DNA of 64,000 nt, taken from the IMG/VR virus record IMGVR_UViG_3300048930_000898. One strand, given 5' to 3'. Both the position numbers and the translations under genes were made by a program. Position 1 is the first letter of the stretch; the number at the start of each line of letters is the position of its first letter. The notes under the pieces are model-generated. The model did no database searches. It was given only the letters and a program-made list of their open reading frames with translations, and had not been told where the DNA came from. The stretch is from an uncultured virus (IMG/VR IMGVR_UViG_3300048930_000898) (Duplodnaviria > Heunggongvirae > Uroviricota > Caudoviricetes). Shown piece by piece: positions 6,282-60,182 of the stretch.

Positions 6282-6863
6282 ATGACACCAATCGTCATTG
6301 AGCAAGGAGCAAGAGGAGAACGAGCTTATGATATCTACTCAAGACTTCTTAAAGATCGTATCATTCTTCTTACTGGCCCTATTGATGACGATATTGCTAG
6401 CAGCATCGTTGGTCAGTTATTATTTCTTAATAGTCAAGATCATGAACCTATTCAGCTCTACATTAATTCCCCAGGAGGATCTGTTACTTCTGGATTAGCA
6501 ATTTATGATACTATTCAGCATATAAAAGCCCCGGTTCATACTTTATGCGTAGGCCAAGCTGCCTCAATGGGAGCAATTTTGCTTGCCTCTGGTGAACAAG
6601 GCAAAAGGGCAATTCTTCCAAACGCAAGAGTAATGGTCCACCAACCTAGCGGGTTTGCTGAGGGTAAAGAAACCGACATTAGAATACAAGCTCAACAAAT
6701 CGAGAAGGTTAGAAATAAACTTGCTAAAATTCTTTTAAAACACACTCGCTCTGATGTTGACATTAAACATATTCATGATATGATGGAATGGGATTTCTGG
6801 ATGGAACCAGAAGAAGCTAAAAAGCATAAATTTGTAGATAAAATCTTGAAAGAGAAAATATAA
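6282..6863 (+). CDS. clpP: ATP-dependent Clp protease proteolytic subunit
   Basis: [31 protein letters not shown] (Ser), MVHQP (His), WDFWM (Asp). Confidence 0.97.
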
Positions 6864-8704: not shown

Positions 8705-8970
8705 TGAATTATAAAAACGTCAAACATCAACTATATCAAATTATAGTTACTGAGATAGCAAAATACTATCAAAAGTCTATTTCACCTGCCGGTCTGTCAT
8801 TAGAAGACCTCAAGGCACTTGAACTTTTATCTAAAATATCTAATTTTGAAGAAAATATTAAAGTGCCAAATACTGAAACTAAACCTAAATCTGATAAAGA
8901 AATTAAAGATCTTTTAAAGATCGTACAGAGTAGTCCTTATGACCCAGGAACTGGAGGAAGCGAAAGCTAA
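8704..8970 (+). CDS. Hypothetical protein, possible terminase small subunit
   Basis: Small helical protein overlapping the large terminase start; positional inference only. Confidence 0.45.
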   Translation: MNYKNVKHQLYQIIVTEIAKYYQKSISPAGLSLEDLKALELLSKISNFEENIKVPNTETKPKSDKEIKDLLKIVQSSPYDPGTGGSES

Positions 8971-10375
8971 ACTTTGGAAAGCCGGAGTACTTTCGTGGAA
9001 ATTACATAAAACTCAAGTAGAAATCTATGATGCTATAAACAATAGTTCATCTTCTATTTTTGTTATTCTTTGTTCGCGGCAGTTGGGAAAATCATATATG
9101 TTGTGTGCATATGCTATCGAATATGCATTAAAAAACCCCGGCGCTAAAATAGCATATATTGCCCCCCAAGCAAAAATGGTTAAAAAAATTATTGTTCCTC
9201 GTATTCGTCAAATTCTTATTGATTGTCCAAGAGACCTTAAACCTACTTATAAAGTAAACGAACAAGTTTATATTTTTGACAATGGAAGTGAAATACACAT
9301 AGCAGGAACTGATGCTGGTAGAGCAGAAAACCTCAGGGGGCAAGTATTTCATCTTGTATTATGCGACGAAGCGGGCTTTATTGACGATTTAAGCTACCTA
9401 GTTTCTTCAATTCTTGTTCCTATGATTTCAACGACCAGAGGAAGAATTATTCTTTCTTCTACTCCTCCAGTTTCACCAGATCACGCCTTTGTAAAATATG
9501 TTAGACAGGCAGAAGTTAATGGTAATTATATTAAAAAAACAATATATGATAACCCCCTAATTGACTCTAGACAGTTAAAAGATCTAATCGAGGCCTCTGG
9601 AGGAGAAAATAGTGACGCTTGGAGAAGAGAGTACCTCGCGGAATTTATAACTAGCGCAAAAGATGCTGTTGTTCCAGAGGCAACTGAAGAATTAATGAAA
9701 GAATTGGTTCAAGAATGGCCTAGACCAGCATTTTATGATAGTTACACTTCTGCTGACTTAGGGTATGTTGATAATACCGGTATTGTTTTTGCATACTGGG
9801 ATTTTTTAAATGCCAAGCTTATTATAGAAGATGAGGCTATGTTTAGCAAACCGACTAGTAGCAAAATAGCTGAAATTGTTAAAGAAAAAGAGAAATCCTG
9901 CTGGGAATTTAATGGAACAGTAAAACAACCTTATAAAAGAGTTGTAGACGGTAATGATATTACTATAGCTGATTTAAATGCTCCTCCAAACAGTTTAAAA
10001 TTTGTAAAAACTAGAAATGACGACCCTTTGGCTGCTGTTAATGAGCTTAGGGTTATGCTTTATAATAAACAAATTATCATTAATCCTCGTTGTAAGAACC
10101 TAATAGCAGAACTTAAATACGCCGTATGGGATAACAGTGGCAGAAAATTTGCTCGCTCAGATGAAGATAGTAGGGGACACTTTGACGTCCTTATGGCTCT
10201 TATTTATTTAATTCGTAATTTAAACAAACAGAAAAATCCATACCCACCGGGGCTAGGATTAAATATTGATACAATGTACGTTCATCCAAGCAATTATACA
10301 AATAAAAGTTCTAATGCTGAAATAATGAAAAAAGCCCTTTTAGGCGACTTTAACAAGCGTTTTGGTAAAGAATAG
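8939..10375 (+). CDS. terL: Terminase large subunit
   Basis: SRQLGKS Walker A, LRG..LCDEAGF Walker B, LSSTP, REYLAEF, nuclease ADLGYVD. Confidence 0.95.
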   Translation: MTQELEEAKAKLWKAGVLSWKLHKTQVEIYDAINNSSSSIFVILCSRQLGKSYMLCAYAIEYALKNPGAKIAYIAPQAKMVKKIIVPRIRQILIDCPRDLKPTYKVNEQVYIFDNGSEIHIAGTDAGRAENLRGQVFHLVLCDEAGFIDDLSYLVSSILVPMISTTRGRIILSSTPPVSPDHAFVKYVRQAEVNGNYIKKTIYDNPLIDSRQLKDLIEASGGENSDAWRREYLAEFITSAKDAVVPEATEELMKELVQEWPRPAFYDSYTSADLGYVDNTGIVFAYWDFLNAKLIIEDEAMFSKPTSSKIAEIVKEKEKSCWEFNGTVKQPYKRVVDGNDITIADLNAPPNSLKFVKTRNDDPLAAVNELRVMLYNKQIIINPRCKNLIAELKYAVWDNSGRKFARSDEDSRGHFDVLMALIYLIRNLNKQKNPYPPGLGLNIDTMYVHPSNYTNKSSNAEIMKKALLGDFNKRFGKE

Positions 10376-10407: not shown

Positions 10408-13400
10408 ATGTCAGATAATAGAGAAGAATATTGGGCACAGCTTGAAAAAACAGAAGTCTGTTCCGAACTCAGAAAAAAAATTGAAGACTGGTATAGTCAT
10501 ATCTCGACAACCGGTATTTTTCGCCGAATGCGAAAATGCTATCTGGCATATTATGGATTTAGTAGTGCAGGCCAAGGTCATACTTCTTCAGAAGTAACAT
10601 ATGGCGGAGCCCAGGGTGAACTTTCTTTAATTAAAGTAAATCAATTACGAAATATTGTGCAACATATGCTAGTTATGACAACTAGCACTCGCCCCTCAAT
10701 GGACGCTCGTGCCACCAATACTGATTATAAATCTCTTTCACAAACTGTACTTGCTAATAGTATTCTTGATTACTACATGCGAGAAAGAAAACTAGAAAGA
10801 TACTTGAGAGATTCTGTAGAAACTTCTCTAATATTTGGTGAGGCCTTTATTCGACTAAGCTGGGATACCAGCCTTGGTGACGAATATATGGTTGATAATG
10901 AAGGTAAAACAGTTTTTACTGGAGATATTAAATTCTCAGTTCATAATCCAATGGACGTAATTCGTGATGTATTTCAACCAGATGCAAATGAACACGACTG
11001 GATGATTGTTAGAAGTTTTAAAAATCGATATGAACTAATGTCAAAATATCCAGAATTAAAAGACGAACTAATGACAATTAGTACAAAAGATCGTCTTGAT
11101 TTTGAATATATGTTTATTAACTTTAATTATACAACATCTTCAGATTTGATTCCCGTATATGAATGGTATCATAGACGAACAGAATCAATGCCTAATGGTC
11201 GATATATTACATTTATTGATAATGATGTTGTGTTTTACGACGGCGATTTACCATATAGAGATATTCCTTTATACAGAATTACTCCTTCAAATCAAATTCA
11301 AACCCCCTTTGGATATACAGCAGCTTTTGATTTATTAGCTCTTCAAGATATTACAGATGCATTACATAGTACAATTGTAACAAACCAAAGTACCTTTGGT
11401 GTACAAAATATTGCAGCACCCCAAGGACATAACTTAACTGTTAGTCAACTTGGTGGCGGCTTAAACTTTATTGAATATGACCCTGCTGCAGGAAAACCAG
11501 AACCACTTAATTTAACCTTTACGCCACCTGAAATTTTTAACTACCTTGGTACAATTGAAAAAACCATGGAAACTATTTCTGGTGTAAACTCAGTCGCCCG
11601 TGGAAATCCAGAAGCAAATCTTCGCTCTGGTAACTCTCTCGCACTTGTTCAATCGATGGCCATTCAGTTTAACAATGGTCTTCAGCAGTCATATGCTCAG
11701 TTAATTGAAGACGTAGGTACGGCTATTATTAAAACATTGAAAGATTTTGCTTCTGTAGAAAGAACCGCAATTCTTACAGGTAAAAATAATAAATCAAATC
11801 TTAAATCATTCAAAGGTGATGATCTTAAAGATATTGATAGAGTTATTGTAGATTTAGGTAACCCTCTTTCTAAATGTCTTAAAAAAGGAACTAAAGTATT
11901 AATGTATGACGGTTCACTTAAAAAAGTAGAAGACATAAAAATTGGTGAACAAGTAATGGGACCAGATAGCAAACTAAGGACAGTTTCTAATGTAAACATT
12001 GGACAAGAAGAAATGTTTGATATTTATCATAAGAAAACAAATCCTAAGCTTTTATATGGCTGCAATAAAAGTCATATTCTTTCTCTTAAATATTGTTCAA
12101 AAGATGGTAGATATGGTTTAAAACAATATGACATTGTTGACGTTTCTGTCGGTGAGTTTTTAACTTGGCCAGCTGGAAAACAACAAAAATTCATGGGATT
12201 TAGAACCGGAGTAGAATTTCAAGATAAAGACACACCAGTTCCTCCTTATCAACTTGGTCTTTGGCTTGGTGACGGACATAAAAATACCCCAGCTATTACC
12301 ACAATGGATGAAGAAATTAAACAAGAATGGTATGAATACGCAAAAGCAGTTGGGCATGATATCAGAGTACAAGATCAACCAAATAATCAATCAAAAGTGT
12401 ATTTTATTACCAGTTCTAAACAAAACGGATCAAATGATCGAAATTGTGCATTAAATGCATTTAAATCTATCGGAGTTATTAATAATAAACATATTCCTGA
12501 TCTTTATAAAATCAATTCAACAAATAAACGATTAGAACTTTTAGCTGGTATTTTAGATACGGACGGAACTCTTATATCAGGAAAAACCTTTGTAATTACA
12601 CAAAAAAATAATGAATTAGCTAAAGATATTATATATTTAGCCAGATCGCTTGGATTTAAAGTTACTAGTAGAAAACGAATATCGTTTTCTCAAAACAAAA
12701 CTAGAGGTATATATAATTCAATCACAATCTCTGGGGATACCTGGAGAATACCCACTAGATTGCCACGAAAAAAAGCTAATAAATCAAAGCATAAATACAA
12801 CCATTTAAACTATGGAATTAGTATAAAATCAACAGGACCTGGAACATATTATGGATTTACTCTTAAAGAAGAACCTCATTTTGTTCTTGGTGATTTTACG
12901 GTAACTCATAATACCACCGCTGGTAAACTCGAAATGGCTAACAATCTCATGCAGATGGGTCTTATTAAATCACCCGATCAATACATGACAGTCATGAAAA
13001 CTGGAAATCTTGATGTAATGCTAGAAGGACCACTTCGAGAACTTACATATATTAAACAAGAAAATGAGTGGCTTGCTGATGGAAAAGAAGCGCCAGTTTT
13101 GATTACAGATAACCATTTGCAACACATCATGGAACATAAATCGGTATTATCAACAATTGAAGCTCGAATGAATCCCGAAGTGATGCGAGCTTGTAGAATT
13201 CATATTGAAGAGCATGTAAATGCTATGAAAAATGCAGACCCAGATGTCCTTTCAATGCTTGGTATTCAACCCCTACAGCCAGGAAGAACCCAAATGGATA
13301 ATCTTGATCCAAACCAAGCGGTATTAAGGCGTGAACAAGAAATGCAAGCTCAAATTGCACAACAGTCCATGATGGGTGGAATGCCTCAATTGCCAGCTGG

Positions 13401-13551
13401 AACCGGACAAGAAACTACATCTACAAATCAGCAAGTTTTACAACAAGGGTTACCAGGTGAGCAGCCGGGCCAAGAAATGCCCCAACAACCAGGAAGTCCT
13501 ACAAATCCACTAAGTGGAGGAAAATGGAACCCACAAACTGGTGGAATGTAA
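10408..13551 (+). CDS. Portal protein (P22-like) containing an intein; ~701 aa after splicing
   Basis: Follows TerL; podovirus portal size and motifs (ISGVNSVARG..SG..LA); Q/P-rich tail. Confidence 0.88.
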   Translation: MSDNREEYWAQLEKTEVCSELRKKIEDWYSHISTTGIFRRMRKCYLAYYGFSSAGQGHTSSEVTYGGAQGELSLIKVNQLRNIVQHMLVMTTSTRPSMDARATNTDYKSLSQTVLANSILDYYMRERKLERYLRDSVETSLIFGEAFIRLSWDTSLGDEYMVDNEGKTVFTGDIKFSVHNPMDVIRDVFQPDANEHDWMIVRSFKNRYELMSKYPELKDELMTISTKDRLDFEYMFINFNYTTSSDLIPVYEWYHRRTESMPNGRYITFIDNDVVFYDGDLPYRDIPLYRITPSNQIQTPFGYTAAFDLLALQDITDALHSTIVTNQSTFGVQNIAAPQGHNLTVSQLGGGLNFIEYDPAAGKPEPLNLTFTPPEIFNYLGTIEKTMETISGVNSVARGNPEANLRSGNSLALVQSMAIQFNNGLQQSYAQLIEDVGTAIIKTLKDFASVERTAILTGKNNKSNLKSFKGDDLKDIDRVIVDLGNPLSKCLKKGTKVLMYDGSLKKVEDIKIGEQVMGPDSKLRTVSNVNIGQEEMFDIYHKKTNPKLLYGCNKSHILSLKYCSKDGRYGLKQYDIVDVSVGEFLTWPAGKQQKFMGFRTGVEFQDKDTPVPPYQLGLWLGDGHKNTPAITTMDEEIKQEWYEYAKAVGHDIRVQDQPNNQSKVYFITSSKQNGSNDRNCALNAFKSIGVINNKHIPDLYKINSTNKRLELLAGILDTDGTLISGKTFVITQKNNELAKDIIYLARSLGFKVTSRKRISFSQNKTRGIYNSITISGDTWRIPTRLPRKKANKSKHKYNHLNYGISIKSTGPGTYYGFTLKEEPHFVLGDFTVTHNTTAGKLEMANNLMQMGLIKSPDQYMTVMKTGNLDVMLEGPLRELTYIKQENEWLADGKEAPVLITDNHLQHIMEHKSVLSTIEARMNPEVMRACRIHIEEHVNAMKNADPDVLSMLGIQPLQPGRTQMDNLDPNQAVLRREQEMQAQIAQQSMMGGMPQLPAGTGQETTSTNQQVLQQGLPGEQPGQEMPQQPGSPTNPLSGGKWNPQTGGM
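11875..12912 (+). mobile_element. Intein with LAGLIDADG endonuclease (346 aa) in portal
   Basis: LSK|CLKKGTKVLMYDG ... LGLWLGDG ... LLAGILDTDG ... FTVTHN|T. Confidence 0.95.
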
Positions 13552-18259: not shown

Positions 18260-19276
18260 ATGTCAGAAAGTCAATCTGCTGGAGCGGACGCTTCGGTATC
18301 AACACAACCCACCGCTTCTGAAAGCGTTGTAAACGAAAATAACTTACCAGGTGAGCACACCATTGAACAAGGCGTAGATGAAGCCGTTGAAATGGCAGAA
18401 ACTGCTGCAACCGAACAAAAAGAACAAGAAGCTGCTGCTAAAAAATCTGCAGAAGAAATTGTAGAAGATGCTCTTGAAGACTTTGCAGAACTCTGGAAAA
18501 CTAAAAAGGGTAAAGAAATTCTAAAGGTAAATGGTAAAAAACGAGAAATTCAAGACTACAATGACATGGTGCGCTTGGCACAGTTAGGTCTTGCTGCAAA
18601 TGAAAAATTTCAACAAGCTAGTGATAAAATTCGTCAAGCTGAAGCAATTGTTGAACTTCTTCAAACCAATCCCGAAAAGGCACTTCAGCGCCTAGGATTT
18701 GATGTTCGTCAAATGGCCGAAGAATATCTTCGCGCTGAACTTCAAAAGGAAGTTCTTACTGATGAACAACGCAAAATCATGGAAATGGAACAAAAATTAG
18801 CAGAATACGAAGAACAAAAGAAAAAGAAAGAAGACGAAGAAAAAGCAAATCGTATTTCTGAACTTCAGCGTCACTATGAAGCTGAACTTTCTGATAAAAT
18901 TATTAAAGCAATTGAAACGTATAAACTTCCTCGTAATGAGCGTACAATTAGCCGTATTGCAGAAAAACTTTATGTTGCTCTTGAAAACGGTTATGAAATT
19001 GACCCATTGGATGTCGCTCCTCTTGTTAAACAGGAAGTTGAAGAAGAACTGCGCGGAATGTATGGAACTCTTGATGTAGATTCTATGCTCCAGCTCCTGG
19101 GTGAAGATAACCTTAAGAAAATTCGTGAACATGAATTGAGAAAAGTAAAAGACAAGGCACCTAAGAATCCTGTTAAAACAACTCCTGTTGCAACCCCTAG
19201 ACAGGAATCGGAAACAGGATCTAAAAAGATCAAAGCTGCTGATTTCTTTAAGAACCTTGAAGAAAAATATAAGTAA
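18260..19276 (+). CDS. Capsid scaffolding protein
   Basis: Acidic coiled coil with LKVNGKKREI motif, directly upstream of the capsid gene. Confidence 0.8.
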   Translation: MSESQSAGADASVSTQPTASESVVNENNLPGEHTIEQGVDEAVEMAETAATEQKEQEAAAKKSAEEIVEDALEDFAELWKTKKGKEILKVNGKKREIQDYNDMVRLAQLGLAANEKFQQASDKIRQAEAIVELLQTNPEKALQRLGFDVRQMAEEYLRAELQKEVLTDEQRKIMEMEQKLAEYEEQKKKKEDEEKANRISELQRHYEAELSDKIIKAIETYKLPRNERTISRIAEKLYVALENGYEIDPLDVAPLVKQEVEEELRGMYGTLDVDSMLQLLGEDNLKKIREHELRKVKDKAPKNPVKTTPVATPRQESETGSKKIKAADFFKNLEEKYK

Positions 19277-19318: not shown

Positions 19319-19348
19319 AGACCACCTTCGGGTGGTCTTTTGTTTTTT
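19319..19348 (+). terminator. Intrinsic terminator
   Basis: AGACCACC-TTCG-GGTGGTCT followed by a T-tract. Confidence 0.9.
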
Positions 19349-19389: not shown

Positions 19390-19575
19390 GCCTAGTAAAA
19401 CCCAACTTTCTATTACATTGGGACGCATCTGCTATCCCTTAAATAATAAGCTTGTTGGTATTTGAATGCACTTACGCCTATATTTCAATTCCTACCCTTA
19501 ATAGGGCGGTAGATGAAAAAAGTAACGTTAATATATCAAATAACAACAAATATTTAATTAAGGAGATATTGTAAA

Positions 19576-22032
19576 ATGTCTGGATCAAACACAGTATCGA
19601 CACTTAATGGTAACTTTAAATTCCTTGAAGTTGTGAGGTAAAGTTGTTAACCCCTCCTAGACAAACAATAGTTTGCTAGAAAAGTACGTGAATTGCTGGA
19701 ACTCCTGAAAAGGACAATCAGCAGCCAAGCCGTAGAGATACGGAAGGTTCAGAGACTACATATAGTAATTATCCTTAGCCGTATGGCGTTGGAGATAAAT
19801 AAAATGCTCAATAAAGATAAACGAAGCATGGTACTATCTTTAGTATTAGGAGATGGTTGTCTGCATTATATTAAAAATAATGGCAGAATCTTCGGTGGTT
19901 TAACAATAGATCATGGAATTAAACAGGCTGACTATCAAAGCTGGAAAGCAAGTTTACTTTCAACTATTTTTAATAAAAACATCAAAGTAAGAACCGGACA
20001 CAAAGGTAAATCAGTTCAACTAAGTCTATGTACAAAAAGATTTAGAGCCTGGAGAAAATTTTGTTATCCTAATAATAAAAAAGATATAGCTAAAATTCTT
20101 CCGTTTATTAATAATCCCGCATTTGCATTAGCAATTTGGCTTGCAGACGATGGTTATGCAGAAGTCGGTAAAAATATTAAATCTCCTAATAGTATATCTA
20201 GTAGATTAAGAATTTTTACTTGTGATCAAAGTATACCTACTCAAGAAGTCATCATTAAATGGTTTAAAACGCAATTTAATGTCAATGCAAAGATTAAATA
20301 TGCTCATAGTAAACAACAAAATAAGTCTTATCCTTATATAAAGTTTACACAAGAAGATAGCTTAAAACTATGGGGAATTATTAGAGATTTTATATTGCAA
20401 TTTAAAAGTATGCAGTATAAATTTAGACATATAGAGCAAGTTTATCAATTACGAATATTACAGCGCGTACCAGATCGTAGGTTTAAATCTACTAAATCTG
20501 ATGATATAGTCCAACCTCCTAGTAATAGTGAGATAAAGTAAAGCGAAGGAAGTATATTCCAACGAAATCAAGAACTTGATTCCGGATGGCGTTAAATTTC
20601 TTAAACTAGTTAACTATGTAGAGTCGAGCAAAGAACTTGGAAATTTTTATCACCAGCCTTAAGAACAGGGCCTCTAATTAGAAATAATTAGATAAACAGT
20701 TCCTGAATTGCTGGAAACTCCCAAATAGGGACAATCAGCAGCGAAGCCTCATAAGAGGAACGTTCAACGACTAGACCGAAAGGTCGTACTGCCAAGCGGC
20801 GGGAAGCGGGAACCATCCTTAATCGGATGAAGATATAGTCTAATCTTACAGGTAACTGTAAGCAGCGAAAGCGGATAAAGAGTAGCGATCTTTATTGAAT
20901 ACAAATGGTTCAACTTTCACACGAACACGGCGTAACTTATTCTGCCGCTAACCCCTCTTTGGGTGCATTTGCACTTCAAGATGCAGTAGCTGCCGTATTC
21001 AAGGACGCTCAAGTTGAAGGTTCTCAAATGCTTATTCGTGCTTCGATGAGCTATGAGGCAGCGGCTCGTGCTTCTAACGATAAAAAAGCTTTCGTAAAAG
21101 CCACTTCACTCATGGTGAAGAACATGGTAAACTCGATGGCTAAACGGCTTGAAGTTTCTAACCTCTATGGACGTAGAAACCTTGCTAAAATTGATTCGCA
21201 AACTGGTGCTGGTACTTCCCGTACATATACCATCTTGGCAGCCGATTGGGCTTCTGGTATCTGGGCAGGTTCCGAAGGTATGCGTCTCGATGTAATCGAC
21301 ACTGCAACACACACTGGCCCTACGGTTCTTTTGAACTCCACAGCCGCTGTTATCGTTGCTGCTGTTGACTTGACAGCTCGTCAAATTTCTGTTACTGGAA
21401 ACGGTGCAGATTTGACTGCAATCGACGCTGCTATCGCCACTGGAGCCTATATGATTCCTCGTGGTGCTCTTAACAACGACATCTTTGGTTTGGATCGTAT
21501 TGTATCGAACACCGGTTCGCTCTACAATATCGATGCCGCTTCCTATGCCCTCTGGCGTGGAAACGTTATTGATAACCTGGGTGTTGCTCTTTCTTTCAGC
21601 AAGATTCTTAACGCTCTTTCACGAGCCGTTGAGCGTGGTCTTGATGAAGATGTAGTTTGCATGATTTCTCCGAAAACATGGGCAAACATTTCTTCTGACC
21701 AAGCGGCTCTTCGTCGTTACGATGATAGCTACAAAGGAAGCAAACTTGAAAACGGATCAGTTGAGTACTCATTCTTTGGACAAAACGGTCGAATTGACAT
21801 TGTTTCTTCGATCTATGTTAAAGAAGGAGAAGCCTTCTTGTTCCCACCTAAGCTTTTGAAGCGTATCGGCGCTATGGACATTTCGTTCAAAATGCCTGGA
21901 CGTCCTCAAGAGGAGTTCTTCCTGGAACTCACAAACAACGCTGGTTATGAACTTCGCGCATACACGGATCAGACCCTGTTTTGCGAAGCTCCTGCGAAGC
22001 TTGTCAAAATCTTTAACATTGTGAATAGCTAA
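19576..22032 (+). CDS. Major capsid protein, spliced: join(19576..19617, 20546..20659, 20908..22032), 426 aa
   Basis: AAGGAG SD; exons join in frame as MSGSNTVSTLNGNF|KEVYSNEIKNLIPDG...FYHQP|VQLSHEHGVTY...; follows the scaffold; highly biased codons. Confidence 0.88.
19618..20545 (+). ncRNA. Group I intron 1 in the capsid gene (928 nt, carries a homing endonuclease)
   Basis: P AATTGCTGGAA, Q AATCAGCAG, R GTTCAGAGACTA, S GATATAGTCC; P1 AACTTT/GAAGTT with U-G; P10 TTCCTT/AAGGAA; terminal G. Confidence 0.93.
19804..20541 (+). CDS. Intron-encoded LAGLIDADG homing endonuclease
   Basis: SLVLGDG and LAIWLADDG motifs; ATG 19804 after GGAG. Confidence 0.88.
   Translation: MLNKDKRSMVLSLVLGDGCLHYIKNNGRIFGGLTIDHGIKQADYQSWKASLLSTIFNKNIKVRTGHKGKSVQLSLCTKRFRAWRKFCYPNNKKDIAKILPFINNPAFALAIWLADDGYAEVGKNIKSPNSISSRLRIFTCDQSIPTQEVIIKWFKTQFNVNAKIKYAHSKQQNKSYPYIKFTQEDSLKLWGIIRDFILQFKSMQYKFRHIEQVYQLRILQRVPDRRFKSTKSDDIVQPPSNSEIK
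20660..20907 (+). ncRNA. Group I intron 2 in the capsid gene (248 nt, no ORF)
   Basis: P AATTGCTGGAAA, Q AATCAGCAG, R GTTCAACGACTA, S AAGATATAGTC; P1 GCCT/GGGC; P10 GAAC/GTTC; terminal G 20907. Confidence 0.93.
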
Positions 22033-22067: not shown

Positions 22068-22097
22068 GAGGCTCCCTAACCGGAGCCTCTTTTTTTA
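22068..22097 (+). terminator. Intrinsic terminator after the capsid gene
   Basis: GAGGCTCC-N6-GGAGCCTC followed by a T-tract. Confidence 0.9.
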
Positions 22098-22172: not shown

Positions 22173-23027
22173 ATGTCTTACGGTATTATTTATAAAATTA
22201 CAAATCTGTTAAATAATAAAATATACATCGGTCAAACTACTACTAGTATAAATAAACGATGGAATCTACATAAAACCGCATCTAAACTCCAGGGTTTAAA
22301 TTCTAAGACTAAATCTATTTTACATAAAGCAATTCTAAAATATGGTCCATCCAATTTTTCAATAGAAGTTATATATAATTGTTCAAATAAAGAAGAATTA
22401 GATAAACAAGAAGATCTGTTAATTACTGAATATAATTCATTAGCTCCACATGGATATAACATGAAAAGGGGTGGCGGAAATGGAACATGGACACAAAGTT
22501 CTAAAATTAGACAGTCTAACAGGTTAAAATTATTGTACAAAAATAATCCTACTTTAAAAAATAAACTTTCTAAAACCTGGCATACCTTCTGGGATAACCT
22601 ATCGGAAGAAGAACACGAATTTTACGTTTCTAGATGGTCTAAAAAAAGCAAACAATACTGGACTGAAGATAATAAAGCTAAAAAGTCTAAAATTGAGAAA
22701 AAAAGATGGAAAAATCTCGATATTGAACAAAAAAAGAAAAGAATAAAGGGATTTCGAGAATATTGGACAGGCGATAAACTAAAAGAACATGGTGAATATA
22801 TTAAAAGTCTATCCCTTTGGAAAAAAAGCGGCTGTTTAAAAAAAGCTATGGATATATCAAGCAAAAAGGTTAAAGTTATTGAAATAAAAACAGGAAAATG
22901 TGTTATATATGAAAGTCAATCTGCCGTTGTTCGTCATCTTAAAATAGCTCAAAATACTATTGTTGATATAATGAAAAATAGAAGATCTAATGAATATAAA
23001 GGTTATAAGTTTGAAAAAGTCAATTAA
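22173..23027 (+). CDS. Free-standing GIY-YIG homing endonuclease
   Basis: GIIYKITN..NNKIYIGQT..R..H; GYN; NUMOD1-like C-terminus. Confidence 0.9.
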   Translation: MSYGIIYKITNLLNNKIYIGQTTTSINKRWNLHKTASKLQGLNSKTKSILHKAILKYGPSNFSIEVIYNCSNKEELDKQEDLLITEYNSLAPHGYNMKRGGGNGTWTQSSKIRQSNRLKLLYKNNPTLKNKLSKTWHTFWDNLSEEEHEFYVSRWSKKSKQYWTEDNKAKKSKIEKKRWKNLDIEQKKKRIKGFREYWTGDKLKEHGEYIKSLSLWKKSGCLKKAMDISSKKVKVIEIKTGKCVIYESQSAVVRHLKIAQNTIVDIMKNRRSNEYKGYKFEKVN

Positions 23028-23634
23028 AGATCTTTATAGAATAGAGCCCATTTCGTATACAAAGGCTCAAGAATTAGTTAAAAAGAATCATTATTTACAT
23101 GCAAAGGCTCCTTATAAAATAGCCTTCGGTTTAATTTCTAATGATACAAATGAGATAGAAGGAGTTATAATTTATGGTCGAGGTCCATCTGGAAGCGTAT
23201 TTAATAGCATATGTGGCAAAGAAGAGGCTAAAAATGTAATTGAGCTTACTCGTTTATGGGTAAAAGACGGTCTTCCAAAAAACTGCGAAAGCTACCTCAT
23301 TGGTAATACATTACATAAAACCGGTTATGATATTATAGTGTCCTTTGCAGACAGTTCTCAAAATCACATAGGAACGGTATATCAAGCTACTAATTGGATA
23401 TATCTAGGTCTAACGAAGGCCGTTTTAGAATATAAACTAAAGGGAGTTGTGACACATCAATATAAATGGTTTAAGGGATATAGTATAAAAGAGTTAAAAG
23501 AATTCTATGGAGATGACCTATACTTAGCTCCTAGATCTAGAAAGCATAGATATGTTTATTTTACCTCAAGAAGGCGTTATTTACTTAAAAAGTTGAAATT
23601 TCCTATTTTAACGTATCCTAAGAAAAAAGCCTAA
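22990..23634 (+). CDS. Mom-family adenine-modification (GNAT-fold) enzyme
   Basis: NHYLH, ELTRLW...KNCESYLI, IVSFAD..QNHIGTVYQATNWIYLG, KHRYVY. Confidence 0.85.
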   Translation: MNIKVISLKKSIKDLYRIEPISYTKAQELVKKNHYLHAKAPYKIAFGLISNDTNEIEGVIIYGRGPSGSVFNSICGKEEAKNVIELTRLWVKDGLPKNCESYLIGNTLHKTGYDIIVSFADSSQNHIGTVYQATNWIYLGLTKAVLEYKLKGVVTHQYKWFKGYSIKELKEFYGDDLYLAPRSRKHRYVYFTSRRRYLLKKLKFPILTYPKKKA

Positions 23635-52499: not shown

Positions 52500-52697
52500 T
52501 TAAATAATTCCTCGTTTTCTTAATGCTTTGTATAATATCTCATGATAATAGTAAAGAACACTGGAAAGAATGCTATAAATAACAGTTAATTCAATGGCAA
52601 TTGAAAACTGGCCAGTATAAAGATATGTAATTGTAAATCCCATGGTCATGGACAATAATCGCCACGTTATTGTTTTATATAAACTTTTCTTACTCAT
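52500..52697 (-). CDS. DUF2061-like membrane protein
   Basis: KSL.KTITWR...YY.HE. Confidence 0.75.
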   Translation of the reverse strand: MSKKSLYKTITWRLLSMTMGFTITYLYTGQFSIAIELTVIYSILSSVLYYYHEILYKALRKRGII

Positions 52698-53296
52698 TTC
52701 TCTTCTTCTGATCTATAGAGATAATCGTCTGTTTCGCCAACAGACCAATTCGTTTCATCCACAAGATATTCAGTAGTATTGATCTTGTATCCCATAGCAG
52801 CTGCGTTACCTTTAACAAGACTGCTGTCATTGAAGACAACACGATTATTTGGATACGCAACCAAGTGACCGCTATCCAGTTCGATAATGTGAGCACATTT
52901 ATGTTCGTTCGGAGTGTCTGAAAGATCACCTTGACCTTCGTAGTCAATCGTGAAACGATAGATACCTTTTTCAGTTTTACCGTTTCTGAGTCTAACGCTA
53001 CAGGCCATGCGCCGAAGAAATTTGAACTCTGTGACTGATACATTGGTAGAAATGTTTGACCATAACTGCGCGTCAGATAAAGATAACCATCCGTCTTCTT
53101 CGGTTGTTTTAAGCGCAGAGATAGGGAGTCCCCAGTAACTTGCTCCGCTTTCAAGGAGGACGTGGAACTGGAGTGCCTTGTGGTGCGGCGCTTTCGCCGC
53201 GTAGAGCCAGCCTCTTTCACTGCCTTCTTTTTTTTTGCCATCCGTCACTGCCCATCTTGCTACGTAAACTTCCATATATGGTAGATTAATATTCAT
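52694..53296 (-). CDS. Conserved phage hypothetical protein
   Basis: FHVLLESGA....LPISA...FTID...EHKC...ELD.G....PNNR. Confidence 0.8.
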   Translation of the reverse strand: MNINLPYMEVYVARWAVTDGKKKEGSERGWLYAAKAPHHKALQFHVLLESGASYWGLPISALKTTEEDGWLSLSDAQLWSNISTNVSVTEFKFLRRMACSVRLRNGKTEKGIYRFTIDYEGQGDLSDTPNEHKCAHIIELDSGHLVAYPNNRVVFNDSSLVKGNAAAMGYKINTTEYLVDETNWSVGETDDYLYRSEEEK

Positions 53297-53781: not shown

Positions 53782-54106
53782 ACTTCACTTTCTTGTTAAC
53801 GTAAAATATTACGTTTCTTTGATTTATTTTATAATTTAACATTTCTTTCATAACTACATTGAAAGTTTTACATTTTGCAATGTCTTTTTTTTCAATATTA
53901 TTATCGTTACACCACGATTTATAGTCAGAGTGAAGAACAAACGCTTTAATTGCATTAGTTCCTTTATCAATATTACATGATTTAATCCATTTGTCAATAC
54001 TAACATACGGATTAAATTCGTTTTTTATCTTATCTCCAGTATAAGATTGGTGCTTTCTAACGAAAGATAGCAGTTTAGCTATTTCACTCTTGTCCTGATT
54101 CATCAT
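53732..54106 (-). CDS. Hypothetical protein, possible D5-primase-type C-terminal winged helix
   Basis: L..DYKSWC..N.......KTF...M pattern. Confidence 0.5.
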   Translation of the reverse strand: MMNQDKSEIAKLLSFVRKHQSYTGDKIKNEFNPYVSIDKWIKSCNIDKGTNAIKAFVLHSDYKSWCNDNNIEKKDIAKCKTFNVVMKEMLNYKINQRNVIFYVNKKVKYEPSKKEKEDGQEAKN

Positions 54107-54881
54107 TAAGCTTCTTTAGCTCATTTTCAGTATTATCGTATTCTTTGATATCTTCATGTTTATCTTCAATAAAATGAAGCTTCACTTCGGATAATATAGG
54201 CATTTTAGTTCTTTCAGAAAACTTCTTCATAAGTCTACCAATTCGTGAGTGATCAGAAGAAGTGGGTTTCTTTCTAGATCTAAACTTTGACCTTCCAGGG
54301 GTGTGTACGATTTTATCAACTAAACCAACCGACAAAGCTTCATCTGCAGTTAAATATAAATCTCGTCTCACAATACTATCCCAGAATGTCTTATCTAACC
54401 ATGAATTATTGGCATAGATTTCATTATATGCATCTTGAACACGTTCAGCTTCTTTTACATAAATCTGCATATCAGTGGTTTTGCCTTCAAATCCATCACT
54501 ACCATCGTGAAGCATAATTGTAGAATTCCTGGATACATAACGTTCATCGCAAACCGCCATAATCACAGTGGCAGCACTCATAATTGCGCCTCTACCATAA
54601 AACACAAATTTACATGGGCTTTCAAGAATCTTATCTACGAGAGCCAGCGAATGGTATGGACTACCACCATAGCTACAGCAATGAATCTCAATTGGTTCCT
54701 TATTAGTAAGGTCCAAAAGCTTATCGATACCGCGCACGGCTAAGGCGATAGATTCAAAGCCGATATCATCATCTCCAGCGCCATCTAGATAGCCCAGGTA
54801 GACCCTTCTATGAAATAGGTCTACACCGTAGCTTAAATAGGTTTGGAGAATACTAGGATCTTTACTCCGCTTCCCCGACAC
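54084..54881 (-). CDS. Second, divergent ClpP-family protease
   Basis: GTG 54881 after AAGGAG; RRVYL, SYGGS, MSAAT (Ser), MLHD (His), RDLYLTADEAL..GLVD (Asp); C-terminal extension. Confidence 0.88.
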   Translation of the reverse strand: MSGKRSKDPSILQTYLSYGVDLFHRRVYLGYLDGAGDDDIGFESIALAVRGIDKLLDLTNKEPIEIHCCSYGGSPYHSLALVDKILESPCKFVFYGRGAIMSAATVIMAVCDERYVSRNSTIMLHDGSDGFEGKTTDMQIYVKEAERVQDAYNEIYANNSWLDKTFWDSIVRRDLYLTADEALSVGLVDKIVHTPGRSKFRSRKKPTSSDHSRIGRLMKKFSERTKMPILSEVKLHFIEDKHEDIKEYDNTENELKKLNDESGQE

Positions 54882-55404
54882 GCTTTTTCTCCTTATAAAC
54901 ACGATCAACAGCAATTGTGACAACGTAGTTAGATTTTAAAGCGTCGCTATGGAGTGTAACCTTTTTAACATCACCAGGAACGGTTCCGGTAAGAGCATCA
55001 ATAATTTCCTTGGGGAGCTGATCATTATCAGAATTTCCAAGGACAATATAAGATTCTTGAGTTGGTACGCCTTCTGTTTCTTGCCCTTCAACTTCTTCTT
55101 TAACACGAAAACGAATAGCATTACCAAGAGCGGCGGGAGTTTCTGCTAATTCTAGTCCATATAGTTTTTCTTGTACAGACCAGACTGCTTCATTAATCTC
55201 TTCTTCTTTAACACCAAGCTTAGTTACAAGCAAAGTTTCAAGAGCGTCCATTTTTTGCTTAATGGCAATAAGACTCTTCTTAGTTTCATTTGTTAAAACT
55301 GTAGCAGCTTCGTAAACTTCAGCTTTAATATCGTCTTTTGTTTGAGCACGAGCAGCCATCAATACTGCTTGTTGAAAACTCATATTAGATTTAGGACTAG
55401 CCAT
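54862..55404 (-). CDS. Protein with a degenerate trigger-factor-like FKBP domain
   Basis: AALGNAIRF....VEGQETEG......IVLG....LPKEIIDALTG..PGDVKKVTL resembles the TF PPIase domain. Confidence 0.6.
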   Translation of the reverse strand: MASPKSNMSFQQAVLMAARAQTKDDIKAEVYEAATVLTNETKKSLIAIKQKMDALETLLVTKLGVKEEEINEAVWSVQEKLYGLELAETPAALGNAIRFRVKEEVEGQETEGVPTQESYIVLGNSDNDQLPKEIIDALTGTVPGDVKKVTLHSDALKSNYVVTIAVDRVYKEKKRVGEAE

Positions 55405-55700
55405 TATTTATTCTCCTTTTTTTGGTCACATTTTAAACAAAATTCATAGCGTTCATTTAAACCAGTATAACATCTCCACTGATGAGCGCAAGACGTATTC
55501 GTAGGTTTATTTACAGGCATGTTTTCAAGTTCCTGTTCAGCTTCAAAATCCCATGGAAAGTAAGTTTTTTTAACTGGAGGTTTTTTAGAACTATCATCGT
55601 CATCATCCCAGTTTTGAAAGAAAGCGGCAATACTTTGTTTAGATGAAACGTCTAAACTTTTAATCATTTGATGAATATATTTAAAGTTTAATTCTTCCAT
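55404..55700 (-). CDS. Hypothetical protein with C-terminal CxH...CxxC zinc-binding motif
   Basis: CAHQWR.Y.GL...YEFCLKC. Confidence 0.65.
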   Translation of the reverse strand: MEELNFKYIHQMIKSLDVSSKQSIAAFFQNWDDDDDSSKKPPVKKTYFPWDFEAEQELENMPVNKPTNTSCAHQWRCYTGLNERYEFCLKCDQKKENK

Positions 55701-56244
55701 GTTTTCTTGCTTTCATCAACTTTTTATTCCACATGTTCATTTTCATTGTACTTACTTTTGTACAGATTGGCTTTCCAAGCATATGCTCAATCTCATGCTG
55801 GATACATTCAGCTTCTACTCCAGTAAGAATGGCGGTTTTATCTTGCCAGTTCATGTCTTTATATCTTACCGTAACTTCTGTATGTCTGTCAATTGGCTCT
55901 TGAAATAAAGGCAAAGAAAGACAACCCTCTTGCATTTGTACAAGTTCACCTTCAGTTTCAATAATAACTGGATTAATCATTTCAACAACTTGTCTTTTTG
56001 AGGGATTGACAGGATCTATTGAATTAGTGTATAATACACAAAATTTCTTATGTACACCAATTTGAACTGCAGCTAGACCAACTCCTCGATATTCTTCCAT
56101 GATTTTAATCATTGGTTTTACCATTTTCTGAAGCTCTGGAAGATCTTCTTGTACACAGTCTTCTGATGGCTTTAAAAGCCTCGAATCGGGCCAAGTAACT
56201 AGTTGATAAATACCCTTTGGTAGTACATCAGGAAGTTGTAACAT
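55681..56244 (-). CDS. def: Peptide deformylase
   Basis: GVGLAAVQIG, EGCLS, QHEIEH. Confidence 0.93.
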   Translation of the reverse strand: MLQLPDVLPKGIYQLVTWPDSRLLKPSEDCVQEDLPELQKMVKPMIKIMEEYRGVGLAAVQIGVHKKFCVLYTNSIDPVNPSKRQVVEMINPVIIETEGELVQMQEGCLSLPLFQEPIDRHTEVTVRYKDMNWQDKTAILTGVEAECIQHEIEHMLGKPICTKVSTMKMNMWNKKLMKARKHGRIKL

Positions 56245-57973: not shown

Positions 57974-59968
57974 TTAATCTTCAAATAGAGCAAATCCGCT
58001 GCCTTTTTTGGGTTTAGCAAAATCAAGCTTAAACCTAGTGGCATGATCTAGAAGCTCTTTAACAACCAGTGAGATTGATTTACTATGCAATCTACTTCGA
58101 ATTACAATCTCTTGCAAATGCGCAATAGAAAATGAATTTACACCGGGATTGTTCTTTTCATCAAGAGCATCCTTCTCTTCTTTTGTTAGCTTTCTTTTAG
58201 CAATAAATTCAACCAGTGAGAGTCGTTCTTTCTGAGAAGGTGGCTCAATTTCAAGCATCATATCAAAACGGCCAGGCCTTTGGGCCAAGGAAGCCATGAG
58301 GTTCTCAGGGTGATTGGTTGTAGAAATAATCATAGTTGGAATTTTAAACACGTTATTAATACCATCGAGGAGGTTTAAAAGACTACTAGAAACTTCATCT
58401 CTTCGGCTATATCCCTCGTGACTACTTCCACCAATGTCTTCAATTACTAGAATAAGCTTAGTTGCTTCTGGTGTATATTCACTATATTTAGTAAAGAATT
58501 TAAATACAGTAGACGCGTCAATTTCAGAAGTTGGCCAGTTAATAACAACAGTACCAGGATCTTTATCTTTAATATCCTTTGCCGCTTGCATGATACTACA
58601 TGTTTTACCGCAGTTATGAGTAACAGTAAAATCTTCCATTAAATATAAATGATCTTTGTCTACTGTAAATCCGTAATAATCATCCTCTGGCAACAATTCT
58701 AATTTAAATCCATTACGTAAAACATTTTTAATTTGTTTTCTTTTTTCTGCTTTCTTTCGCTTTAATCTAGAGGGGATCATGTCAATGTCACCTAAAATGG
58801 CAACTCTCCAATAAGTACCTTCAGTACCATTTTGACTTTTTTTCTTACAACTTTTAATATATGCAGCAAGTCCTAATGATCTTGATAAATATACAACGTC
58901 ATTTGCTAATTGTTTATTTACTGAAACGTAGTCAAATCTTCCTTTGTTTAAATTTCCATCGGTGTCTATAATTCCTGCCAAGAGTTCAAGTCTTTGTTGT
59001 CTAGAGCTTCTTAGATATTTAACAGGAATATGTTTGTTTTTAATAAGATTCAATGCTTTTAGTGCATTAAATGCGCGATTTTTTCCGACCTTGGGACCAC
59101 CATTACGAGCCGTTATAGTATATGTTGAAGATTTATTATTAAGCTGAGTTTGTACTCTTACATCATGACCAACAACATTAGCATAATCATACCATTCTTG
59201 TTTGATTTCGTTATCCATAGTTGTTATGGCAGCCAAATTAGAACTACCATCTCCAAGCCACAGTCCAAGAACATAGGGATTAATTTCTAAATTTTGTTCT
59301 TTAAATTCTACTCCGACTTTATAAAGTTTTAATTTTTCATCATGCTTTGAAATGATATTATTTATTTCTATATTAAAAATTTGATTTTTTACAGAATGAA
59401 CTAAACTTAAAATATGACCTTTATTTACAATAAAAGAATCACCCTTGGTTGGTATAACTTTTACCATTTCTTGGCGACCTCTAACAAGTTTTAAAACCTC
59501 TCTGGGTTGACTGTCTGGTCCCATGAGTTTATCACCAACTACAATATCTTGAACAAGTTTAATTGAACCGTCATGCATTAAAATCCCTTGATTTTTTGCG
59601 TGACATCCAGGAAGGCCATATAACAATACGCCTCTCTTTTTTGGTTGACCTAGCTCTTCATATACAGATAAATTGTTAAAAAACATATCAGCTTCATTTA
59701 AAATCATGGCCGTATTTGTAACAGTTGTAAGAAGCTCTCTTTCAACAAATTCCATGGGGGCAAGTTCAACTGCCGTGCTGGTTTTATTTAAATTATAACT
59801 ACCGGGTTTGATTACAATAGGCTTTTGTTCTTTTTCTTCTTTTACATAATCAAACTGTAATACGTAACCCTGGTCCTGTAGAGCAAGGTCGGACTCCGGA
59901 ATAGTGTCAACCTTTCCTTCGTAAATATCTTTTAAAGTTGTTTTGTTTTTTAATTTAAAATTACCCAT
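57974..59968 (-). CDS. AAA+ ATPase containing an intein (~333 aa after splicing)
   Basis: KRGVLLYGLPG|CGKT, VIEDI, LLNLLDG, TTNHPE, RPGRFD. Confidence 0.92.
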   Translation of the reverse strand: MGNFKLKNKTTLKDIYEGKVDTIPESDLALQDQGYVLQFDYVKEEKEQKPIVIKPGSYNLNKTSTAVELAPMEFVERELLTTVTNTAMILNEADMFFNNLSVYEELGQPKKRGVLLYGLPGCHAKNQGILMHDGSIKLVQDIVVGDKLMGPDSQPREVLKLVRGRQEMVKVIPTKGDSFIVNKGHILSLVHSVKNQIFNIEINNIISKHDEKLKLYKVGVEFKEQNLEINPYVLGLWLGDGSSNLAAITTMDNEIKQEWYDYANVVGHDVRVQTQLNNKSSTYTITARNGGPKVGKNRAFNALKALNLIKNKHIPVKYLRSSRQQRLELLAGIIDTDGNLNKGRFDYVSVNKQLANDVVYLSRSLGLAAYIKSCKKKSQNGTEGTYWRVAILGDIDMIPSRLKRKKAEKRKQIKNVLRNGFKLELLPEDDYYGFTVDKDHLYLMEDFTVTHNCGKTCSIMQAAKDIKDKDPGTVVINWPTSEIDASTVFKFFTKYSEYTPEATKLILVIEDIGGSSHEGYSRRDEVSSSLLNLLDGINNVFKIPTMIISTTNHPENLMASLAQRPGRFDMMLEIEPPSQKERLSLVEFIAKRKLTKEEKDALDEKNNPGVNSFSIAHLQEIVIRSRLHSKSISLVVKELLDHATRFKLDFAKPKKGSGFALFED
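58613..59605 (-). mobile_element. Intein with LAGLIDADG endonuclease (331 aa) in the Walker A motif
   Basis: PG|CHAKNQGILMHDG ... LLAGIIDTDG ... FTVTHN|C. Confidence 0.95.
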
Positions 59969-60182
59969 TTTTGCTCCATGATTTCATTATGTTAATAAAA
60001 GTTTTAGCAACACTGCGAATCGAAACACTTCCAGTTATAACGTTTATATATGAATTATAATTAAACTGCTTATTGGTTTCATGACTAAATCTATTAAGAT
60101 GAACACTAGAAGTTCCATTAAAATTAGAACTCTGTCTATTAGTTCTCACACTTGTTTTATTAGTTTGTTTAACAATATTCAT
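59961..60182 (-). CDS. Hypothetical protein
   Basis: ORF overlapping both neighbours by a few nt. Confidence 0.45.
   Translation of the reverse strand: MNIVKQTNKTSVRTNRQSSNFNGTSSVHLNRFSHETNKQFNYNSYINVITGSVSIRSVAKTFINIMKSWSKNG

Follow-up and report, generated by a model that had tools for sequence, protein, structure and literature searches.

Two probable group I introns of IA type in the gene for the major capsid protein of an uncultured tailed phage

The td, nrdB and nrdD introns of phage T4, all of subgroup IA2, lie in nucleotide-metabolism genes and are associated with GIY-YIG or HNH-type enzymes. Additional hairpins separate P7 from P3′ in these introns, the endonuclease genes protrude from the ribozyme core as loops, and in-frame stop codons occur early. 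The same traits recur at the locus described here, which differs from the T4 cases in that the interrupted gene encodes a capsid protein and the enzyme is of the LAGLIDADG type.

Introns in phage structural genes have precedents. The earlier note on this DNA had regarded phage group I introns as less often found in such genes; those in capsid genes turn out to be better documented than this implied (PMC3706429, PMC7886860), having been described in LittleE, in Tuc2009 and in Delta-group crAss-like phages, and Twort offers structural genes with multiple introns. Mycobacteriophage LittleE has an intron in its major capsid gene, and RT-PCR together with N-terminal sequencing established that it is spliced (Pope et al. 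2013, PMC3706429). As in our locus, the intron bears an endonuclease gene, follows an exon-final U and has G as its last base; unlike in our locus, it is single, its endonuclease gene lies on the opposite strand and its type is given as "most likely group I" (PMC3706429). The window (the whole 64-kb stretch of DNA analysed) has two introns with RF00028 matches and a first exon of 42 nt; splicing, like its efficiency and intron homing, is here deduced from the sequence alone. Staphylococcus phage Twort, according to PMC10136302 and PMC11878797, carries three group I introns in orf142, two similar ones of subgroup IA2 flanking a 23-nt exon. The likeness consists in several related IA-type introns crowded into a single late structural gene whose internal exons are short; the differences are that orf142 encodes the tail tube protein (PMC11878797), that exon skipping was shown there, and that relatives of the window have even shorter inferred exons (20, 13 and 8 nt). 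Group I introns in tailed-phage major capsid genes are likewise described for Delta-group crAss-like phages (Yutin et al. 2021, PMC7886860) and lactococcal phage Tuc2009 (cited in PMC3706429), with recognition in metagenome genomes by way of endonuclease domains. Those belong to other phage lineages; for the window, splice sites, P1 and P10 pairings and covariation could be resolved.

In the window, a gene for an HK97-fold capsid protein is, very probably, split into segments of 42, 114 and 1125 nt by two IA-type group I introns and spliced to give a protein of 426 aa. The features of the locus are as follows.

18260 to 19276: scaffold-like ORF, upstream of the first hairpin
19319 to 19338, plus strand: terminator-like hairpin ahead of the capsid transcription unit (8-bp stem with 5 G-C pairs, then a T run)
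19560 to 19565, plus strand: Shine-Dalgarno-like AAGGAG, 10 nt 5′ of the exon 1 ATG (read from the sequence)
19576 to 19617, plus strand: capsid exon 1 (42 nt, codons 1-14; ATG at 19576, final U)
19618 to 20545, plus strand: intron 1, group I (928 nt, endonuclease gene inside, terminal G)
19804 to 20541, plus strand: predicted LAGLIDADG homing endonuclease gene within intron 1 (245 aa, GGAGA ahead)
20546 to 20659, plus strand: capsid exon 2 (114 nt, codons 15-52; final U)
20660 to 20907, plus strand: intron 2, group I (248 nt, without an ORF, terminal G)
20908 to 22032, plus strand: capsid exon 3 (1125 nt, codons 53-426 plus stop)
22068 to 22089, plus strand: terminator-like hairpin 3′ of the capsid gene (8-bp stem with 6 G-C pairs, then seven T)

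Removal of 19618-20545 and 20660-20907 had been said to leave one continuous frame of 426 aa. A scripted join bears this out: the exon coordinates of the earlier note are exact, and the joined exons (1281 nt) encode 426 aa plus a stop with zero internal stops. It had also been noticed, correctly, that the ORF list lacks the first 52 aa. The sole frame listed for the capsid, of 375 aa (20905-22032), starts at an ATG made of the last three bases of intron 2, which is why these residues are missing. The gene probably forms one transcription unit between the two terminators, with an inferred pre-mRNA of about 2.7 kb. An identical locus occurs in a separately catalogued viral contig (L001/L004). 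In the nearest virus record, G001, neither DNA nor protein searches matched the locus; as that record is a 71%-complete fragment, the result carries no weight for or against. The phage is an uncultured, tailed one of roughly 85 kb.

The identity of the capsid protein rests on several comparisons. It matches PHROG 14242, "major head protein" (E 2e-13), and has no match in Pfam. A Foldseek search with the AlphaFold model of P0002, the best-matching uninterrupted homolog, returned 121 PDB matches at E<=0.001 (best E 2.3e-7), and among the matches listed most are phage capsids and encapsulins; the model is of moderate confidence (mean pLDDT 72, with values below 50 at residues 43-90), and comparison with solved capsids gives low TM-scores of 0.2-0.45. 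By tblastn, P0002 matches a protein of Microbacterium phage Shocker that is annotated as major capsid protein; P0002's best match in the phage genome collection shows no more than 25% identity. The gene order runs from terminase, portal and scaffold-like genes through the capsid gene to tail genes. On the strength of the PHROG match, the Foldseek matches and the position in the head module, we assign the protein as an HK97-fold major capsid protein.

Alignment to intron-less homologs, a check proposed beforehand, was gap-free over all 426 aa with P0002, P0005, P0009 and P0011. P0002 is identical at 387 of 426 residues, including 49 of the first 52. The translation of exon 1 corresponds to residues 1-14 of P0002 and P0009, and exon 2 is 95% identical to residues 15-52 of P0002 (tblastn). 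Uninterrupted homologs measure 424-428 aa, and entries are full length for 22 of 49 close and 60 of 71 distant homologs. Within positions 1-52, 11 residues are invariant in 28 homologs. The pN/pS ratio of codons 1-52 is 0.15-0.21 (against L083, L006, L003 and L009; the comparison leaves out L002 and L084). The small exons are under purifying selection.

The ribozyme core is most easily read in intron 2. The Rfam group I model RF00028, whose gathering score is 50 bits, aligns along its full length (positions 1-253 of 253) to 20650-20862 with 109.6 bits (whole-window E 1.4e-27). P1 pairs 20656-20660 with 20667-20671 and includes the wobble U20659.G20668 (read from the sequence); P10 pairs 20663-20666 with 20908-20911 (4 bp), and the terminal base is G20907. 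The minimum-energy fold contains P1, P2, P3, P4, P5, P6, P6a, P7.1, P7.2, P8 and P9. Intron 2 with its flanks folds with a z of -5.17, and 0 of 200 shuffles fold as well. Subgroup IA is recognized by extra helices, P7.1 and P7.2, between P7 and P3′. Two hairpins lie between the P7 5′ strand and the P3 3′ strand of the intron 2 fold, as in IA introns, and cmscan placed a 31-nt insertion at this position. A contig from DNA run X2 matches from 20908 on, with the codons of the end of exon 2 directly before, and represents a natural allele without intron 2. Three DNA runs contributed small shares, and mapping them recovered for the most part the conserved cores of introns from other organisms; the X2 contig was the one informative match.

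In intron 1 the core was scored in two parts because the 738-nt endonuclease ORF splits it. RF00028 matches the 5′ part (19608-19884) with 45.7 bits (whole-window E 2e-8), below the gathering score, and the 3′ part (20385-20530) with 17.5 bits (E 0.15 in a 1.7-kb search), a match weak if taken alone. In the Infernal search proposed beforehand, intron 2 exceeds the gathering score and the two parts of intron 1 each stay below 50. At E<=0.01 the 64-kb window has two RF00028 matches only, 20650-20862 and 19608-19884, and motif scans of the window revealed no further intron cores. P1 of intron 1 pairs 19611-19619 with 19625-19633 and includes the wobble U19617.G19627; P10 joins 19621-19626 to 20546-20551 (6 bp), and the intron ends in G20545. 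P3 is formed by 19684-19688 and 20466-20470, P7 by 19754-19758 and 20507-20511. Moving the boundaries of intron 1 by 1 or 2 nt leaves the spliced mRNA unchanged, but the rules of a final exon U and a final intron G are then broken. Aligned to intron 2, intron 1 shows counterparts of the two P7-P3′ hairpins. Its 5′ core is identical to intron 2 at 56 of 75 positions and to the L006 homolog at 72 of 77. Megablast against phage genomes gave a sole match, a 42-nt stretch of conserved core in one Bacillus phage.

Changes in relatives preserve these pairings. In the codon-14 intron, P1 and the exon vary in concert: UAACUUU/GAAGUUG in the window stands against UCUUUUU/GAAAAGG in L083, so that both partners differ in three pairs. 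The window's P3, GUACG/CGUAC, is replaced by GUAUG/CAUAC in L006 and L083. RNAalifold applied to four 5′ halves recovered P4, P5, P6 and P6a, with 6 of 27 predicted pairs changed on both sides. The P/Q/R/S elements, the U-G pairing in P1, P10 and the terminal G, which the earlier note had ascribed to both introns, were all found again. The covariance model, the boundary rules and the compensatory changes in relatives support its reading of both intervening sequences as group I introns, and from sequence and predicted fold we classify them as related introns of IA type.

The product of the ORF in intron 1 (19804-20541) matches the Pfam family LAGLIDADG_2 (PF03161) over profile positions 1-167 of 168, with 62.6 bits against a cut-off of 25 (E 5.7e-17), and also PHROG 11023. 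Two LAGLIDADG-type motifs (LGDG and ADDG segments) align within the one chain. The protein is 58% identical to the L006 endonuclease encoded at the same site, and L083 has an intact homolog as well. The 3′ end of the gene spans the P3′-P8-P7′-P9 segments of the ribozyme, and its translation could hinder folding of the intron 1 3′ core.

Taken together, the data suggest the following course. Each intron would fold as a ribozyme whose guide sequence pairs with the end of the upstream exon (P1, with U.G at the cut) and with the start of the downstream exon (P10). Free guanosine would then start two transesterifications, releasing the intron and joining the exons, so that the 426-aa protein would be encoded once both introns are removed, and not before. 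Stop codons located at the intron 5′ ends or shortly after them (in-frame TAA at 19639-19641 in intron 1; TAA at 20660-20662, immediately 3′ of exon 2) may release ribosomes reading unspliced RNA. During co-infection, capsid alleles that lack the intron are presumably cleaved by the LAGLIDADG enzyme at the junction of codons 14 and 15, and the intron would be copied in.

Besides normal splicing, the two introns together might sometimes skip exon 2. Since exon 2 is 114 nt long, a multiple of 3, skipping would keep the frame and yield a 388-aa isoform without residues 15-52. The similarity of the two cores would favor such an event, and there is a precedent in the two similar IA2 introns of Twort orf142 (PMC10136302, PMC11878797). 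However, P10 of intron 1 fits the start of exon 2 and not that of exon 3, residues 15-52 include invariant positions, and the exons reported to be skipped in PMC10136302, of 23 nt and 34 nt, are far shorter than exon 2. We therefore consider a skipped isoform unlikely.

There is still less to recommend the idea that the introns are real but that one or both splice poorly, the capsid gene being a defective copy in a dying or assembly-chimeric genome. It is true that intron 1 scores below the Rfam gathering threshold and that imperfect copies exist in the clade, the codon-14 intron of L083 having A, not G, as its last base. In the window, however, all boundary and pairing rules are satisfied, exons 1 and 2 are free of stops and frameshifts and bear the mark of purifying selection, and the endonuclease ORF is intact. 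The same locus is found, unchanged, in the separate contig, and the 64-kb window contains no second capsid gene, P0002 matching this locus only. Such a defect is accordingly very improbable.

That the capsid is the 375-aa frame from the ATG at 20905, with exons 1 and 2 as remnants or separate small genes, is barely credible: the ORF list and the gene callers of many database entries do give 372-377 aa, but uninterrupted homologs have 424-428 aa including the residues of exons 1 and 2, the truncated entries are interrupted genes wherever their DNA was examined, and no Shine-Dalgarno-like sequence could be read ahead of 20905. Homologs starting at MVQLSHEHG had been named in advance as evidence against a split gene; the short homologs (375-377 aa) prove to be interrupted genes wherever their DNA could be inspected, an outcome that favors the split gene.

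Returning to the split gene, gene callers give 375 aa for this capsid, and 27 of 49 close homologs in the protein database are N-terminally truncated entries. Capsid phylogenies and structure predictions for the lineage are therefore built on incorrect proteins. Two ribozyme reactions would be needed to make the late protein with the highest expression. Nothing here alters the principles already known for group I splicing and homing; what the locus adds is the crowded landing site of its relatives in the same short stretch of the capsid gene.

Relatives carry one to three introns. Their intervening sequences are inserted at seven different points in codons 14-58, six lying in a stretch of 33 nt, and fall into three sequence families with a LAGLIDADG, GIY-YIG or HNH endonuclease or none. 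The inferred internal exons are as short as 20 nt (L006), 13 nt (L009) and 8 nt (L084); the last is below the known short cases of 23 nt (Twort) and 34 nt (Coxiella) given in PMC10136302. If all these genes are expressed, the 8-nt exon would have to pair in P10 with the preceding ribozyme and in P1 with the following one. RF00028 gave 0 matches at E<=0.001 in L002, L003, L005-L007 and L009, and in L083-L086 matched the L083 codon-14 intron only; the 218-nt element of L084 reached 13.3 bits (E 0.4 in a 265-nt search), and the 336-nt element of L006 had no group I match at E<=10. We read these other elements as putative group I introns from boundaries and pairings seen by eye and, for the third family, from boundaries only.

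It is possible, although we put it forward tentatively, that the first ~58 codons are a battleground of competing mobile introns, with interference competition between co-infecting phages over the capsid gene. If so, each insertion would destroy the recognition sites of neighboring endonucleases. In the literature searched, neither this phage lineage nor the intron cluster in its capsid gene was described. The series of one to three introns in relatives could be used to study splice-site choice by tandem group I ribozymes, as well as competition of homing endonucleases over one conserved target. A further site before residue 93, considered on account of 334-336-aa entries starting MLIRS, was rejected: the exon of L084-L086 is continuous from residue 54, and the MLIRS entries therefore merely begin where the last exon has its first ATG.

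The capsid gene is split into three exons and lies between two terminator-like hairpins:

19319-19338, terminator-like hairpin
19576-19617, exon 1, 42 nt (14 codons) from the ATG at 19576, with an AAGGAG box upstream
19618-20545, intron 1
20546-20659, exon 2, in frame, encoding 38 residues
20660-20907, intron 2
20908-22032, exon 3, a long frame from 20908 to the stop codon at 22030-22032
22068-22089, terminator-like hairpin

Joining the three exons by script yielded 1281 nt, corresponding to 426 codons plus the stop, with no internal stops. The continuous 426-aa frame and the 42-nt first exon proposed in the earlier note are thus borne out, as is its remark that the ORF track misses the first 52 aa: the ORF list for the locus includes only a 375-aa ORF (20905-22032), which takes its ATG from the final three bases of intron 2.

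Both intervening sequences were compared with RF00028, the Rfam group I intron model (gathering score, 50 bits). Intron 2 matches the full model at 20650-20862 with 109.6 bits (E 1.4e-27 in the 64-kb window). The match to intron 1 is divided between a 5' part (19608-19884; 45.7 bits, E 2e-8 in the window) and a 3' part (20385-20530; 17.5 bits, E 0.15 in a 1.7-kb search), separated by an ORF with a conserved ATG at 19804 and a GGAGA box upstream. The 245-aa product of this ORF matches LAGLIDADG_2 (Pfam, 62.6 bits; cut-off, 25) and PHROG 11023, and its frame extends across the ribozyme's 3' core. The U-G P1 pairings, P10 pairings and terminal Gs noted previously can be read in both introns. P1 of intron 1 (guide with 5' exon) joins 19611-19619 to 19625-19633, with the splice-site U19617 facing G19627; P10 (guide with 3' exon) joins 19621-19626 to 20546-20551 at the start of exon 2, and the final base is G20545. 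P1 of intron 2, read from the sequence, joins 20656-20660 to 20667-20671 and includes the wobble U20659.G20668; P10 joins 20663-20666 to 20908-20911 at the start of exon 3, and the final base is G20907. The minimum-energy fold of intron 2 and its flanks reproduces P1, P2, P3, P4, P5, P6, P6a, P8 and P9 (z = -5.17; none of 200 shuffles folded equally well). It also contains two hairpins between P7 and P3'; two extra hairpins at this place are a mark of subgroup IA. The two introns are mutually related, with 56 of 75 core positions identical. RF00028 gave no other group I hit in the window at E<=0.01, and motif scans of the window found no further core elements.

Homologous proteins support the spliced frame. 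Among 610 relatives found with the exon 3 protein, the four closest full-length ones (P0002, P0005, P0009 and P0011, all uninterrupted and 426 aa long) align with the spliced product without a single gap, so that the alignment to intron-less homologs suggested in the earlier note is collinear throughout. Identity to P0002 is 387/426 residues overall and 49/52 in the first 52 aa. Across 28 aligned full-length homologs, eleven positions of residues 1-52 are invariant. For codons 1-52, pN/pS ranges from 0.15 to 0.21 (window against the related loci L083, L006, L003 and L009); the comparisons with L002 and L084 were out of register and left out. Homologs of intron 1, with intact homologous endonuclease genes, occupy the junction of codons 14 and 15 in L006 and L083. 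At this site, the P1 exon side reads UAACUUU in the window versus UCUUUUU in L083 and the guide GAAGUUG versus GAAAAGG, three pairs being altered on both sides; P3 reads GUACG/CGUAC in the window versus GUAUG/CAUAC in both relatives. RNAalifold applied to four 5' halves recovered P4, P5, P6 and P6a, with 6 of 27 predicted pairs changed on both sides; the pairs predicted outside these four helices are artefacts of half-intron folding. Further evidence comes from a 346-nt contig in a public DNA sequencing run (X2, a wastewater metagenome). It carries a near-identical exon 3 (window 20908-21169) directly abutted by the final codons of exon 2, upstream of which lies the 3' end of an intervening sequence of a different family (the third, below). 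On this evidence the contig represents a naturally occurring allele that has no intron 2 but carries another element within a few bases upstream. Since this allele joins the end of exon 2 to 20908, the 3' boundary of intron 2 is fixed at the nucleotide level.

When P0002 was used as a probe, 74 of 82 viral loci (L003 and L010-L082) showed an uninterrupted gene, some ending at contig ends, and eight gave split matches. Four of eight metagenome loci were split. Among loci with at least 70% identity, L003 is the sole uninterrupted one. Splits were resolved by reading the sequence, followed by in-silico joining. All reconstructed relatives encode 425-428 aa without stops, and none has more than one gap within the first 62 columns of the alignment. 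These capsid genes contain between one and three intervening sequences each (L006, 1163-4619; L009, 1593-4622; L084, 2103-4481; L083, 476-2944; L002, 2036-4122).

Insertion sites in the capsid gene (P0002 codon numbering; endonuclease families assigned by Pfam)
Site A, codons 14/15: window, L006, L083; LAGLIDADG gene
Site B1, codons 46/47: L006 and near-copies L005, L007; 336 nt, no ORF
Site B2, inside codon 49: L009; GIY-YIG gene
Site C, codons 50/51: L002/L008, GIY-YIG gene; L084, L086, 218 nt without ORF
Site D, codons 52/53: window only; 248 nt, no ORF
Site E, inside codon 53: L005-L007, L009, L084, L086; HNH gene
Site F, codons 57/58: L083; 239 nt, no ORF

Apart from the shared codon-14 site, the sites fall in codons 46-58; six of the seven lie inside 33 nt. 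The intervening sequences form three families. Sites A and D hold the window's family. In the second (sites C, E and F), P1, P10, P3, P7 and P8 are readable, but RF00028 reaches only 13.3 bits (E 0.4). The third occupies B1 and B2, 7 nt apart (L006 2252-2587 and L009 1738-2601), with a GIY-YIG gene at one of them; a search with the Rfam group I model gave no hit up to E 10, and only its boundaries (T before it, G as last base) and a pairing resembling P1 are secure. Every intron in the reconstructions is preceded by T and, except for the site-A intron of L083 (518-1463), ends in G. The latter ends in A under its sole in-frame parse, with good P1 and P10; the A could be a sequencing variant, could mark a compromised intron, or the true end could be a nearby G adding one codon. 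N-terminally truncated database proteins make up 27 of 49 at 63% identity or more versus 11 of 71 more distant homologs; contig ends may explain some of them.

Published work describes capsid-gene introns in mycobacteriophage LittleE, where splicing was shown by RT-PCR, and, by citation, in lactococcal phage Tuc2009 (PMC3706429). In jumbo gut phages, essential genes contain group I introns at a mean of 18.5 per genome (PMC12880540). As such introns are already documented, the window's gene adds a well-supported case to a known type. The newer aspect is the clade-wide hot spot, more than the window's own two introns. Internal exons inferred in the relatives measure 20 nt in L005-L007, 13 nt in L009 and 8 nt in L084 and L086, which are distinct metagenome contigs. 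Known short exons measure 23 nt in Twort orf142, a structural gene with several introns and exon skipping, and 34 nt in Coxiella 23S rRNA (PMC10136302); the orf142 product is described as a tail tube protein (PMC11878797). The literature searched yielded no description of this phage lineage, no comparably dense site cluster in a capsid gene and no 8-13-nt exons between phage group I introns.

Both intervening sequences are very probably spliced out of the capsid pre-mRNA. The capsid unit would probably be transcribed as a single pre-mRNA, in which each ribozyme would fold and then excise itself in the usual two steps, initiated by guanosine; the message would encode the 426-aa protein only once both introns had been removed. 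Ribosomes translating unspliced RNA would halt at an in-frame TAA seven codons into intron 1 (19639-19641) or at the TAA that is the first codon of intron 2 (20660-20662). Early stops likewise await ribosomes on unspliced RNA in phage T4 introns. Presumably, the LAGLIDADG enzyme promotes homing into alleles that lack the intron. Past folding capacity and frame joining, we infer every step from sequence.

That the gene encodes the major capsid protein, as first proposed, is supported by several observations. Pfam gave no match to the protein, which matches PHROG 14242 'major head protein' (E 2e-13). A tblastn search with P0002 found a Microbacterium phage Shocker protein annotated as major capsid protein, with 24.7% identity across 82% of P0002. 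The structure predicted for P0002 by AlphaFold (28-sequence alignment, mean pLDDT 72) gave 121 PDB matches at E<=0.001 (best E 2.3e-7) with modest TM-scores of 0.2-0.45; those listed are mostly phage capsids and encapsulins. Gene position agrees, with tail and fibre genes downstream and, upstream:

8939-10375, large terminase
10408-13551, portal
18260-19276, acidic scaffold-like ORF

Residues 75-473 of the portal ORF (1047 aa) match portal PHROG 156, and residues 482-837 match PHROGs 19299 and 36964, labelled 'terminase large subunit'. A 664-aa ORF (57974-59968, minus strand) matches these same families and a helicase family. The labels of the two PHROGs look unreliable, and the portal ORF may be a fusion. 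Directly 3' of the capsid terminator lies a free-standing GIY-YIG homing endonuclease gene (22173-23027; Pfam E 1e-8, PHROG 314 E 4e-35), which shares 38 nt with the beginning of a gene of the Mom family (22990-23634; Pfam E 1.1e-39). Other genes in the window include:

6282-6863, plus strand, ClpP-like 'head maturation protease' homolog (PHROG 94, E 4e-45)
52694-53296, match to PHROG 3704 'ferredoxin'
54084-54923, minus strand, second such protease homolog (PHROG 94, E 3e-27)
55681-56244, peptide deformylase
60179-62948, SbcCD-like nuclease genes
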